Shown in pieces: positions 1,403-2,586 of a stretch of 5,469 bases of DNA. How positions within the stretch are numbered: position 1 is the stretch's first letter; every line of letters starts with the position of its first letter. Source of the DNA: a virus (taxonomy: Duplodnaviria; Heunggongvirae; Uroviricota; Caudoviricetes); the IMG/VR virus record IMGVR_UViG_2740892230_000031, positions 1-5,469 of that record, one strand, 5' to 3'. A model generated the notes under the pieces. The model saw nothing but the letters and a program-made list of their open reading frames with translations, did no database searches and was not told the origin of the DNA. The translations under genes and the position numbers were made by a program.

Positions 1403-2025
1403 CGAAAAAATACACCCTCATTTACGCAGATCCCCCCTGGACATTCCGCGACAAAGCAACCGATGGTCAACGCGGTGCAAGTTTTAAATATCCGGTCATG
1501 AGTCTTCTGGATATCTGCCGCCTCCCGGTATGGGAACTGGCAGCCGATAATTGCCTGTTGTCTATGTGGTGGGTGCCTACACAACCACTTGAAGCATTGA
1601 AGGTTGTAGAAGCGTGGGGCTTTCGTCTGGTGACGATGAAAGGATTAACCTGGAACAAATGCGGGAAAAGACAGACCGACAAGCTGGTCATGGGTATGGG
1701 TAGCACCACTCGCGCTAACAGCGAAGACTGCCTTTTTGCAGTGAAAGGAAATCTGCCCGAACGCATTAACGCCGGAATAATCCAGTCATTCACTGCACCG
1801 CGCCTTGATCACTCCCGCAAGCCGGATATGGCTCGAGAAAAGCTTGTGCAACTTCTTGGCGATGTTCCCCGGATAGAACTGTTCGCCCGCCACACCTCGC
1901 ATGGATTTGATGTATGGGGTAACCAATGCGGCACACCATCCATTGAGATGGTTCCGGGTATTGTTAAATTTCTGGAGAAAACCAATGAGCGAAAAAACGA
2001 CGTTGACAAAGGCATCACCAGTTGA
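1399..2025 (+). CDS. MT-A70-family DNA methyltransferase (probable N6-adenine specific)
   Basis: 208 aa. N-terminal catalytic motif LIYADPPW, then the hallmarks HSRKP and ELFARHTSHGFDVWGNQ in the order expected for MT-A70-type enzymes (motif IV before motif I). Confidence 0.9.
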   Translation: MTKKYTLIYADPPWTFRDKATDGQRGASFKYPVMSLLDICRLPVWELAADNCLLSMWWVPTQPLEALKVVEAWGFRLVTMKGLTWNKCGKRQTDKLVMGMGSTTRANSEDCLFAVKGNLPERINAGIIQSFTAPRLDHSRKPDMAREKLVQLLGDVPRIELFARHTSHGFDVWGNQCGTPSIEMVPGIVKFLEKTNERKNDVDKGITS

Positions 2026-2197
2026 ATTAAGGCAGTGTCTGGAAATCGCAAATCAACTTGCCAGAAGTGGAATACGATTTGTTCCAATCCCGATTACAGC
2101 AGATGCAGAACTTCATCTGTTTGGTGAAATTCTTTCCCGAAAGCTGGATGAACTGGAAAAGCTGGTAGAAGAAGCTGACACCTCACTAACCGTATAA
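1985..2197 (+). CDS. Hypothetical small phage protein (71 aa)
   Basis: ATG at 1985 with GGAG at 1974-1977 (7-nt spacer). Overlaps the 3' end of the methyltransferase gene by 41 nt in another frame. Sequence MSEKTTLTKASPVELRQCLEIANQLARSGIRF...; TAA at 2195-2197. No family recognised. Confidence 0.5.
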   Translation: MSEKTTLTKASPVELRQCLEIANQLARSGIRFVPIPITADAELHLFGEILSRKLDELEKLVEEADTSLTV

Positions 2198-2232
2198 CAG
2201 CCCCACCGACATTAAAATATCAGGAGAAAAAA

Positions 2233-2586
2233 ATGAACGCAGTGCTCACAGAATTGAACAAATTAGGAAAAGCATCAGCCGAAAGTATTTCTAAAGGTCT
2301 CAATATTGATTTGAATGACGTTATTGACACTCTATGGAAGTTAAAAAACCAGGGGGTAGTAACTGTAAAAAATGGCATCTGGCAGGCAGTTGCAAGGGAA
2401 GTGGACAAAAAACCAAATATCGCCCCAGTGCAGCCAGTGCAGCACAACATTATAGGTGACCTGCTACGTAAATCACGGAAAGAAGCGCGCCGCGCCGGGC
2501 GGAAACAGAAACGATGGGAGGGTGCATGTAAGGCGTTGCAAGAACTGAATAAATACCGTGACTTGATCAACGAATTGTCAGAGTGA
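2233..2586 (+). CDS. Hypothetical protein with an N-terminal winged-helix-like domain and a basic C-terminal region (117 aa)
   Basis: Strong RBS (caggag, then 7 nt, then ATG 2233). N-terminal ~50 aa has a helix-helix-helix-wing pattern (LTELNKLGKASAESISKGLNIDLNDVIDTLWKLKNQGVVTVKNGIW). C-terminus RKSRKEARRAGRKQKRW is highly basic. Confidence 0.65.
   Translation: MNAVLTELNKLGKASAESISKGLNIDLNDVIDTLWKLKNQGVVTVKNGIWQAVAREVDKKPNIAPVQPVQHNIIGDLLRKSRKEARRAGRKQKRWEGACKALQELNKYRDLINELSE

Follow-up and report, generated by a model that had tools for sequence, protein, structure and literature searches.

Two small exo-xis genes of an Stx2a prophage, assigned by sequence to the Orf63/DUF1382 and DUF1627/YdaW families

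Between a DNA adenine methyltransferase gene and xis, the window (the whole stretch of 5,469 nucleotides that was analysed) carries two small open reading frames, here called ORF1 and ORF2. A preliminary description had left both proteins unassigned in an anonymous 'cargo region', which raised the questions in which element they lie, to which families they belong and what they might do there. The 602-bp interval with ORF1 and ORF2 was 100% identical to the Stx2a phages P13374 and TL-2011c. It was matched by 187 phage records and was present in 304 of 5426 complete E. coli genomes, on the chromosome in every case, where it is annotated as DUF1382 and DUF1627. The region is flanked by wrbA, int and xis, and belongs to an Stx2a prophage of the P13374/TL-2011c type that is inserted in wrbA. 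In the identical phage, ORF1 sits between exo (P13374 9740-10429) and xis/int, the placement of the Orf63 family. Both ORF1 and ORF2 run in one direction as part of the exo-xis accessory region, a leftward early region (pL, N-antiterminated), and the supposed cargo region is thus a well-described one. The following features make up the block and its downstream flank:

971..1402, + strand: ORF143, first gene of the block (phrog_1680, E 2.7e-79; weak HTH_11 match, PF08279; annotated 'regulatory protein' in P13374)
1399..2025, + strand: MT-A70 family DNA adenine methyltransferase (PF05063, E 5.3e-22; phrog_359, E 8.3e-117; PADLOC MTase_II, E 1.7e-86)
1974..1977, + strand: Shine-Dalgarno GGAG of ORF1, 7 nt before the ATG and inside a common motif at 1968-1981
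1985-2197, + strand: ORF1, 213 nt (70 codons and a stop), 70 aa
2222..2226, + strand: Shine-Dalgarno AGGAG of ORF2, 6 nt before the ATG, a strong ribosome-binding site
2233-2586, + strand: ORF2, 117 aa (phrog_1888; PF07789)
2583..2987, + strand: 134-aa gene downstream of ORF2 (phrog_29320, E 9.5e-91, full length)
3203..3220, + strand: intrinsic-terminator-like hairpin and T-run (terminator scan)
3232-3531: xis (PF06806, E 2.8e-30)
3560-4894: int, downstream of xis

The stop codon of ORF143 and the methylase start share an ATGA, the 3' end of the methylase and ORF1 overlap in different frames, and the GTG start of the 134-aa gene overlaps the ORF2 stop as GTGA. The hairpin and T-run close the block just upstream of xis. 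An initiation motif, ATWTCWGGAGAMAA, is common to ORF143, ORF1 and ORF2 and lies just 5' of each (repeat families D2/D5). The preliminary description of two small plus-strand frames as genuine early-left accessory genes was borne out, both having good Shine-Dalgarno sites; its 41-nt overlap with the methylase was exact (1985-2025) and its strong ribosome-binding site for the 117-aa frame was found, while the 71 residues given for the first frame were corrected to 70. An in-frame ATG at 1901 yields a 98-aa version of ORF1, as annotated in P13374. The ATG at 1985 was preferred and this version dropped, because it has no Shine-Dalgarno site and its Pfam and PHROG matches start only at its residue 35. 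Antisense frames at 2220-2570 and 1809-2087 had no PHROG match and were discarded as genes. That ORF1 and ORF2 could be spurious or non-coding, a possibility raised in the preliminary description, was not supported: both are more than chance frames, given their strong family matches, antisense frames devoid of PHROG matches and selection on the winged-helix codons of ORF2 (pS 0.34, pN 0.036 between allele groups).

A promoter scan of the block gave counts no higher than those in shuffled sequence and no convincing promoter, so that expression in stable lysogens is uncertain. At a permissive threshold, Rfam gave no match in or near the ORF1-ORF2 interval, and besides the common ribosome-binding-site motif a search for operator-like repeats near ORF2 gave just short two-copy matches, likely due to chance. 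The CMAT clones CM3, CM4 and CM9, from Φ24B lysogen cultures, map here, and CM9 was assigned to a Φ24B CDS at 2248-2646 (PMC3342100). This CDS is vb_24B_3c, that is, Gp05 of Φ24B, so that these clones of an older study already point, as immunological evidence, to Gp05 expression.

By its sequence, ORF1 is assigned to the DUF1382/Orf63 family as the Orf63 homologue of the P13374 phage type. PF07131 matched with 99.2 bits (cut-off 27; E 1.4e-28) over profile positions 1-59 of 60, phrog_292 with E 1.5e-29 and PDB entry 8dsb with E 3.6e-11. Identity to lambda Orf63 was 53% over the folded core, encoded by diverged DNA, and R31, F32, V33, P34, I35, P36, E42 and K53 were invariant in an alignment with lambda and Φ24B Orf63, E42/K53 corresponding to lambda E36/K47. 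Besides ORF1, a search of the first 24 kb of P13374 gave no Orf63 homologue. In the AlphaFold2 monomer, helices were modelled at residues 12-27 and 39-67 and the strand segment between them as coil, which gives the following parts:

residues 12-27: helix alpha1
residues 30-36: IRFVPIP strand segment
residues 39-67: helix alpha2, with an acidic tail

A Foldseek search of this monomer against the PDB gave zero matches, 8DSB included, an outcome to be expected if the model is the protomer of an intertwined dimer. In its NMR structure (8DSB) lambda Orf63 is a dimer, whose cleft accommodates an amphipathic helix, and the same work reported pro-lytic phenotypes (PMC10869804). In that dimer, the RFVPIP strand forms a two-stranded intermolecular sheet and E36/K47 are a conserved pair (PMC10869804). 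Deletion and complementation phenotypes of the family have been published in lambda and Φ24B (PMC5575149, PMC10869804).

ORF2 is classed as a short-form DUF1627/YdaW-family protein and an allele of Φ24B Gp05/vb_24B_3c. Neither protein is thus unassigned, ORF1 belonging to a family with a known structure and published phenotypes. The PF07789 match of ORF2, at 29.3 bits, was barely above the cut-off of 28.1 and was confined to the C-terminal end of the model (positions 95-153 of 155); further family support came from phrog_1888 (E 6.2e-77), phrog_630 (E 3.3e-17) and phmmer matches to longer DUF1627 members (E 2e-8 to 2e-4). This wider family was reached only by exhaustive search and profile, word-indexed single-sequence protein searches giving only near-identical proteins. 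Among 32 DUF1627 members, M1, V4, L8, W35, L37 and G41 were invariant in the N-terminal part and L78, E84, R86, R87, A88, W95, C99, L102, E104, N106 and D110 in the C-terminal part; both end domains are conserved and the middle is variable. ORF2 has gaps across the columns of the IPSFTEKR motif and the second winged helix of the 234-260 aa forms. Because this middle is missing, it was filed in a short-form subfamily (phrog_1888) and not as a typical YdaW. In all three DUF1627 members whose context was examined, with lengths of 256, 256 and 173 aa, the gene lies in the pR operon directly after a replication-loader gene, either IstB_IS21/DnaC-like or lambda-P-like, which marks DUF1627 as an early-gene family.

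The AlphaFold2 model of ORF2 as a whole was moderately confident (pLDDT 74, pTM 0.39), and its architecture agrees with the winged helix, PVQ repeat and coiled coil modelled and published for Φ24B Gp05 in 2021 (PMC8614690). Three parts were distinguished:

2233..2391, + strand: winged helix-turn-helix domain, residues 1-53 (AlphaFold2, Foldseek, weak TrmB match in Pfam)
2425..2442, + strand: PVQ repeat, a 9-nt in-frame tandem of CCAGTGCAG in 2 copies (TRF)
2449..2580, + strand: long amphipathic C-terminal helix, residues 73-116 (AlphaFold2 H73-116; family alignments)

The N-terminal winged-helix pattern seen earlier from the letters was confirmed by structure prediction and Foldseek. The model (H2-11, E13-15, H16-23, H27-39 and a hairpin E43-46/E49-52) is a three-helix bundle with a beta-hairpin wing, at block-mean pLDDT 79-85, and Foldseek gave probability 1.0 to many winged helices (TFE-alpha, Zalpha, AspA, MarR). 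W35, G41 and W50 are invariant or nearly so across the family, and the domain is under strong purifying selection. Against the PDB and BFVD, Foldseek returned generic winged helices only (E ~0.002-0.04) and matched nothing to the C-terminal helix; a PDB sequence search with ORF2 alone gave only noise (E above 0.5), and NCBIfam generic winged-helix similarity only. The profile matches, too, were winged helices throughout.

The PVQ array lies within a disordered linker, residues 54-72, with pLDDT below 50 for residues 55-68. In 35 IMG/VR loci with a countable array the copy number ranged from 2 to 10, and of the full-length alleles retrieved ORF2 is the shortest. The C-terminal helix is nucleotide-identical between allele groups and holds the family-conserved motif with the invariant W95 and C99. 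Its first half, RKSRKEARRAGRKQKRW, is basic, and the very basic C-terminus of the preliminary description was reproduced for residues 71-117 (pI 10.1, 13 of 47 residues K or R).

Taken together, these results make it probable that both exo-xis genes are regulatory, ORF1 as a pro-lytic Orf63 homologue and ORF2 as a dimeric nucleic-acid-binding protein; the pro-lytic effect, dimerisation, nucleic-acid binding and any target are what we infer in this explanation. As early products of the pL operon, the two proteins would likely modulate both the lysis-lysogeny decision and prophage induction, and 'host takeover', proposed earlier, fits the Orf63 literature if loosely taken as lysis-lysogeny modulation. 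By analogy with lambda Orf63, ORF1, a small acidic protein (pI 4.8), is expected to form an intertwined alpha-beta-alpha homodimer, and it would favour lysis both in the lysis-lysogeny decision and in prophage induction of the H2O2 type. Its likely mode, on the same analogy, is that of a dimeric adaptor whose hydrophobic cleft holds the amphipathic helix of a partner. Lambda Orf63 requires K54 for activity, and possibly not every homologue is active (PMC10869804). This lysine aligns with L60 in ORF1, so that pro-lytic activity of ORF1 cannot be assumed. In ORF2, the basic amphipathic helix is a probable dimerisation element and may also be in contact with nucleic acid, and an early, dimeric nucleic-acid-binding regulator is its most likely role. 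The reach between the two heads of such a dimer would differ by allele because linker length varies.

It is possible, though unlikely, that ORF2 is instead a protein- or RNA-binding adaptor and not a DNA-sequence-specific regulator, its winged helix being a protein-interaction module of the ScpB, TFE-alpha or Vps36 type and its basic helix binding RNA or host machinery such as the replication apparatus or RNA polymerase. The winged helix is charge-neutral (pI 6.1), beside a basic tail, it has acidic residues in its recognition helix, and the wing of Gp05 was described as shortened (Donaldson, PMC8614690). None of these three traits of the winged helix is typical of a protein that binds DNA strongly and sequence-specifically. 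Many of its top structural neighbours are binders of proteins and not of DNA, TFE-alpha and EAP30/Vps36 among them, with a weak ScpB PHROG match besides, but other close neighbours (AspA, MarR, IdeR, Zalpha) are true DNA binders. The conserved polar residues E84, R86, R87, E104, N106 and D110 resemble a specific interface more than a plain coiled coil. The position of DUF1627 members (173-256 aa) directly after helicase-loader genes in the three contexts examined also suits an adaptor, although gene adjacency is not evidence for interaction of the products, and published yeast two-hybrid screens covered lambda proteins only.

A further question is whether ORF1 and ORF2 act as a pair, in which the hydrophobic cleft of an acidic Orf63-like dimer would receive the basic amphipathic helix at the ORF2 C-terminus and so turn the winged-helix protein on or off. 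The genes are 35 nt apart and were adjacent in 36 of 36 loci retrieved, but all 36 come from one closely related lineage (at least 80% identity) and their adjacency is not independent evidence. The pI values are complementary (4.8 for ORF1, 10.1 for the ORF2 helix), and one amphipathic helix fits into the cleft of lambda Orf63, with ionic contacts at the periphery (PMC10869804). Against such a pair, Φ24B/933W-type phages combine an N-terminally chimeric Orf63-like gene with an intact ORF2, the three DUF1627 members examined elsewhere have no DUF1382 neighbour, and a search of the 27.5-35.8 kb early-left stretch of lambda, a phage with Orf63, gave no DUF1627. Docking of the two proteins is therefore improbable. 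A more elaborate two-protein switch in Stx2a phages, in which ORF1 would clamp the ORF2 helix under redox control via C99 and with a PVQ-tuned reach, is if anything slightly more doubtful; if true, the threshold of H2O2-triggered induction, and hence Shiga toxin output, would differ between outbreak lineages.

The preliminary description had also thought of superinfection exclusion and anti-defence, and a role of either protein as an anti-defence, superinfection-exclusion or host-killing effector was considered. The genes have a methyltransferase as their neighbour in an accessory early-left region, lambdoid phages can do without their b-region and exo-xis genes under laboratory conditions (PMC8614690), and Orf63 expression lowers host survival during infection (PMC10869804). 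In PADLOC, however, ORF1 had no match and ORF2 matched only the winged-helix part of Csa3/CasR (E 1.8e-4 to 4e-3). Neither protein has toxin-like features and the Orf63 phenotype is a shift in a developmental decision, not exclusion, so that an effector role is a poor prospect.

A still weaker case is that of a Zalpha-like ORF2 winged helix with affinity for DNA or RNA in the left-handed Z form. The best PDB sequence matches of the DUF1627 profile were vaccinia E3L 1oyi (E 0.0049), 7c0i (E 0.0082) and 8i9j, poxvirus E3-type proteins were among the viral library matches, and Foldseek aligned PKZ, CyHV-3 ORF112 and ADAR1 Zalpha at 0.8-1.4 Å over 52-57 residues. These E-values are marginal, however, and small winged helices generally superpose well on one another. 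ADAR1 Zalpha makes its contacts through Lys169, Asn173 and Tyr177 in helix 3 and Pro192-Pro193-x-Trp195 in the wing. In the E3L profile alignment, the invariant W35 and W50 fall at the positions of Zalpha Y177 and W195, but the essential Asn (ADAR1 N173) aligns with Ile/Val, the family Asn being shifted by one position, K169 lacks conservation and the Pro-Pro wing is deleted in the ORF2 family. On this contact-residue conservation, Zalpha membership was rejected and the idea is very unlikely.

That either gene is a decaying, functionless remnant is scarcely credible: frameshifted copies occur occasionally (L030-L032 for ORF1, L043 for ORF2), Φ24B-type ORF1 is chimeric and the ORF1 selection test, with few substitutions (4 synonymous, 4 non-synonymous), was uninformative, but the ORF2 winged helix is under purifying selection, its frame is intact in almost all loci despite the slippery repeat, both genes have strong ribosome-binding sites, the Orf63 core residues are kept over diverged DNA and the CMAT clones argue for expression.

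ORF1 and ORF2 are already catalogued accessory genes of Stx prophages and belong to known families, which makes the finding an ordinary one. They are carried by the type of Stx2a prophage found in the O104:H4 strain of the 2011 outbreak, and the exo-xis region is known to affect the inducibility of Stx prophages and hence the amount of toxin. What is added to the published record is that ORF1 is intact and that no further Orf63 homologue was found in the first 24 kb of this phage type, Φ24B gp06 being a chimeric remnant; that the number of PVQ copies in the Gp05 linker differs between phages, from 2 to 10; that Gp05 falls within a wider YdaW/DUF1627 early-gene family; and that CMAT clones already pointed to its expression. 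These additions leave the classification unchanged.

Compared with known systems, ORF2 residues 1-53 resemble archaeal-type winged helices (AspA, Sso10a, TFE-alpha, TrmB) and Zalpha in fold class (rmsd 0.8-2.4 Å over 52-57 residues, E about 0.01 by Foldseek), but no family-specific residues are in common and the C-terminal module had no structural or sequence relative in these searches. With the long-form YdaW/DUF1627 proteins (234-260 aa) of Rac-like and other lambdoid prophages, ORF2 has in common the N-terminal winged helix METVxDALKxxGKAS...LWxLKxxG...W, at ~30% identity, and the C-terminal motif L..A.RELRRA....KWE..C.AL.ELNK.RD. It has neither their second winged helix nor IPSFTEKR and, unlike the members examined, which follow a DnaC-like or P-like loader gene in the rightward operon, it is not directly downstream of a helicase-loader gene and lies in the leftward exo-xis region.

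ORF1 and lambda Orf63 are similar in size, with an identical RFVPIP dimer-bridge strand, the E36/K47 pair kept and the same predicted alpha-beta-alpha layout. ORF1 differs in six additional N-terminal residues, a more acidic C-terminal tail and L60 in place of the required K54, and it follows the MT-A70 methylase, whereas lambda orf63 lies in a conserved orf60a-orf63-orf61-orf73 block that is absent from the P13374 type. The other close relative, Φ24B gp06/vb_24B_4c, was published as a 'second Orf63-like' gene (PMC8614690) and occupies the same place, immediately upstream of the DUF1627 gene. DNA and protein alignments located a junction between the two:

2051..2054, no strand: mosaic breakpoint relative to Φ24B/933W-type phages

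DNA homology to these phages begins at ORF1 codon 24, and from there to the stop the DNA of gp06 is nearly identical, with one nucleotide and one amino acid (L68P) changed. The first ~24 residues of gp06, MRRGNRHTGCRYRNRRRRLTVANL, are unrelated and Arg-rich and replace most of helix alpha1, whereas ORF1 keeps a lambda-like N-terminus, TKASPVELRQCLEIAN. On these alignments gp06 is a recombination chimera and a remnant, so that the intact form of the paralogue is the one in the window. Closest of all is ORF2 to Φ24B Gp05/vb_24B_3c: with 2 PVQ repeats against 7, its linker is five repeats, or 15 residues, shorter, while all aligned residues are identical and both architecture and neighbouring genes are the same.

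The window covers the left arm, on the int side, of a lambdoid prophage of the Shiga-toxin type that is inserted in wrbA. Positions 909-5469 showed 99.7-99.8% identity to the wrbA prophage junction of about 60 complete E. coli genomes, including O104:H4 outbreak strains. Bases 1-898 were 100% identical, in reverse orientation, to the far right end of 933W-type Stx phages (records L0134-L0136) and were connected to the int-proximal arm by an N run at 899-908. At 1-908, scaffolding seems to have put together two contig ends, from this Stx prophage or a different one, and we doubt that the adjacency is real. 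Bases 1-898 contain a YgiW/BOF-family gene at 1-345 and a phrog_1925 ORF at 425-613 on the minus strand. The remaining features were:

971-1402, plus strand, ORF143, with a TTG start at 971
1399-2025, plus strand, MT-A70 methylase
1985-2197, plus strand, ORF1
2233-2586, plus strand, ORF2
2583-2987, plus strand, 134-aa ORF, full-length match to phrog_29320 (E 9.5e-91)
2950-3201, plus strand, DUF4222 ORF of 83 aa with a GTG start (PF13973, E 2.2e-15)
3203-3220, plus strand, terminator-like hairpin
3232-3531, plus strand, xis
3560-4894, plus strand, int
4891-5469, plus strand, ORF consisting mainly of wrbA (NAD(P)H:quinone oxidoreductase) 3' sequence

In the identical Stx2a phage P13374, the gene block sits between exo and xis and is therefore part of the 'exo-xis region', which is transcribed early from pL (PMC8614690). 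P13374, TL-2011c, and related Stx2a phages carry the ORF1-ORF2 interval with 100% identity, and 187 phage records matched it. It also occurred in 304 of 5426 complete E. coli genomes, where every copy was chromosomal and annotated as 'DUF1382 family protein' plus 'DUF1627 domain-containing protein'. The six-gene block lies between two intrinsic-terminator-like hairpins with T-runs (929-947 and 3203-3220). Only 11 nt separate the second from xis downstream, so that antitermination would be needed for upstream transcription to reach xis and int, as in lambda pL. The int stop codon overlaps the start of the ORF at 4891-5469; wrbA is therefore split by the prophage insertion, with the phage end supplying a new in-frame N-terminus.

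ORF143 showed a weak HTH_11 match, is annotated as 'regulatory protein' or 'transcriptional activator', and is linked to the methylase by an ATGA overlap (1399-1402). Within the 329-position phrog_359 profile, the methylase matched 118-324 only; this family therefore appears to contain longer proteins, possibly fusions. ORF143, which matched only phrog_1680, and the methylase may thus represent a split gene. The GTG start of the 134-aa ORF overlaps the ORF2 stop codon as GTGA, which suggests that the two may be translationally coupled. Its 3' end overlaps the DUF4222 ORF by 38 nt. At 2583-3201, the P13374 GenBank record instead has short antisense ORFs (ORF03, ORF04), which look spurious.

Both ORF1 and ORF2 proved to be real, conserved early-operon genes. 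A sequence check placed them where the preliminary description had located them, with ORF1 encoding 70 rather than 71 aa and overlapping the methylase 3' end by exactly the 41 nt claimed. The strong RBS proposed for ORF2 is AGGAG at 2222-2226, 6 nt before ATG 2233; the ORF1 Shine-Dalgarno sequence is GGAG at 1974-1977, 7 nt before ATG 1985. ORF143, ORF1, and ORF2 share a 14-nt initiation motif, ATWTCWGGAGAMAA, at 953-966, 1968-1981, and 2217-2230, respectively. Because this motif precedes ATG 1985, that start was favoured over the in-frame upstream ATG 1901, the P13374 GenBank start of ORF1; in the 1901-start version, family profile matches begin only at residue 35. Antisense ORFs gave no phage-family match in profile searches. 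The label 'unassigned' given to both proteins did not hold: identical sequences are annotated in RefSeq, the ORF1 family has a structure and phenotypes, and the ORF2 architecture has been published.

ORF1 contains the Orf63 core. It matched PF07131 (DUF1382) with 99.2 bits (cut-off 27) in a Pfam profile search, also matched phrog_292, and shared 53% identity over 49 residues with lambda Orf63, whose NMR entry 8DSB was found by PDB sequence search (E 3.6e-11). The RFVPIP segment, which forms a two-stranded intermolecular sheet in the Orf63 NMR structure (PMC10869804), was invariant in the alignment with lambda and Φ24B Orf63, and the conserved pair E36/K47 of lambda Orf63 aligned with E42/K53. 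An AlphaFold2 monomer model placed RFVPIP between helices 12-27 and 39-67. Since P13374-type phages lack the conserved orf60a-orf63-orf61-orf73 block, and tblastn against the first 24 kb of P13374 revealed no further Orf63 homologue, ORF1 appears to be the sole Orf63 gene of this phage type rather than a spare copy.

Deletion of orf63 from lambda and Φ24B results in later and weaker prophage induction, increased host survival, and decreased early gene expression after H2O2 (PMC5575149), while supplying Orf63 in trans cuts survivors and lysogens roughly ten-fold (PMC10869804). Orf63 is an obligate dimer whose hydrophobic cleft takes up a designed amphipathic helix with micromolar affinity, and its activity is lost in E36K (unfolded) and K54E variants (PMC10869804). 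No natural partner has been established (PMC10869804), and yeast two-hybrid candidates are unconfirmed. ORF1 probably forms an Orf63-type dimer and, by binding a partner helix, would bias the phage towards lytic development and induction. With L60 at the position of lambda K54, ORF1 plausibly acts in the same way, though this cannot be taken for granted.

ORF2 consists of a winged helix, a flexible linker of variable length, and a basic amphipathic helix. An AlphaFold2 model based on a 32-sequence family alignment (mean pLDDT 74) showed a winged helix (1-53), a disordered segment (55-68), and a single long helix (73-116). This layout matches that of Φ24B vb_24B_3c (Gp05), for which Donaldson (PMC8614690) modelled a winged helix followed by a PVQ repeat and, at the C-terminus, a coiled coil whose surface is basic. 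All aligned residues of the two proteins were identical, and ORF2 lacks five PVQ repeats of vb_24B_3c, which shortens its linker. The Foldseek search, proposed with structure prediction in the preliminary description, returned winged helices only (TFE-alpha, Zalpha, AspA, MarR, IdeR, FtsK-gamma, and EAP30/Vps36 among them; E about 0.002-0.04, alignment probability 1.0), so that its winged-helix guess for the N-terminus was right. The very basic C-terminus was likewise confirmed, with a pI of 10.1 for the last 47 residues versus 6.1 (neutral) for the winged helix. Expression of Gp05 was given as unknown by Donaldson (PMC8614690). In an older CMAT immunoscreen of Φ24B lysogen cultures, clones CM3, CM4, and CM9 mapped to Φ24B 2185-3025, and CM9 was assigned to CDS 2248-2646 (PMC3342100). 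A coordinate check showed this CDS to be vb_24B_3c, which provides indirect evidence that its product is made.

The PVQ repeat is encoded by a 9-nt tandem repeat, CCAGTGCAG, at 2425-2442. Arrays, countable in 35 of 37 related IMG/VR loci, held 2, 3, 4, 5, 6, 7, 9, or 10 copies and were in frame except for one frameshifted copy; the two-copy allele of the window is the shortest full-length form. In the DUF1627 gene of locus L043 (3001-3368), a frameshift ahead of the repeat gives QCSQCS in place of PVQPVQ, and in L030-L032 (about 1440-1470 / 2750-2790) the Orf63-like gene has a 1-nt frameshift among its N-terminal codons; such pseudogenised copies are occasional. Comparison of the two main allele groups gave 11.5 synonymous versus 4.5 non-synonymous differences in winged-helix codons (pS 0.34, pN 0.036) and an unchanged recognition helix, indicating purifying selection on the winged helix. 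The last 46 ORF2 codons were nucleotide-identical between these groups. Comparison of locus L037 with window 2180-2590 showed about 73-93% identity (60-nt blocks) across the ORF1 tail, the spacer, and the ORF2 winged helix and linker, 100% identity at 2452-2571, and an end of homology at the ORF2 stop codon, beyond which downstream genes differ. ORF2 is thus a mosaic unit that has exchange points both inside the gene and at its end, and the comparison clearly illustrates that lambdoid mosaic boundaries can fall at gene borders and within them.

An exhaustive phmmer search found about ten 50%-identity clusters of longer ORF2 relatives (137-260 aa), and a profile search reached about 2800 at 90% identity, none of which had a name other than 'DUF1627' or, in some phage records, 'YdaW family'. 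ORF2 and its relatives have both end domains in common and vary in the middle region; relatives of 234-260 aa carry a second winged helix and an IPSFTEKR motif, both absent from ORF2. YdaW/DUF1627 genes of 173-256 aa (loci L005-L007 and L045-L047) always occupied a conserved slot behind the gene for a helicase loader of the IstB_IS21/DnaC-like or lambda-P-like type. The next gene was usually DUF977 or Ead/Ea22, and the replication modules of these prophages differed.

ORF2 probably dimerises via its C-terminal helix and binds nucleic acid as an early regulator, in which linker length would determine how far apart the two heads reach. Caution is called for by the neutral winged helix with its acidic residues in helix 3 and by the lack of nearby operator-like repeats in a repeat search. 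The strongest alternative is an adaptor whose winged helix binds protein and whose basic helix binds RNA or protein. Such an adaptor may be linked to replication, given that the three relatives examined (two with 256 aa and one with 173 aa) are located immediately behind the DnaC-like or lambda-P-like loader gene of the rightward early operon. The Orf63-like cleft of ORF1 might also bind the ORF2 helix, consistent with their complementary charges and with adjacency of the two genes in 36 of 36 loci; however, the case for such a pair is weak because all 36 loci derive from one lineage and elsewhere neither gene keeps the other as neighbour. A Zalpha identity of the winged helix, to which the best PDB matches of the family profile pointed, was rejected because the contact residues do not fit.

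PVQ copy-number polymorphism is a modest addition to published knowledge, as are the YdaW-family link and the overlooked CMAT evidence. Φ24B has both a canonical orf63 (vb_24B_8c) and a copy of the ORF1 gene (vb_24B_4c, 'gp06'), termed a less similar duplicate by Donaldson (PMC8614690). It looks less similar because, in the DNA alignment, homology with the window starts abruptly at 2054, codon 24 of ORF1. The Φ24B/933W-type protein has an unrelated Arg-rich N-terminal peptide and misses most of helix alpha1, whereas ORF1 of the window retains a lambda-like N-terminus. The chimeric form is commoner in databases than the intact one, P0021 being present on at least 1000 contigs. Distinguishing the intact Orf63-like form of the window from the chimeric form of Φ24B and 933W-type phages represents a further modest addition.
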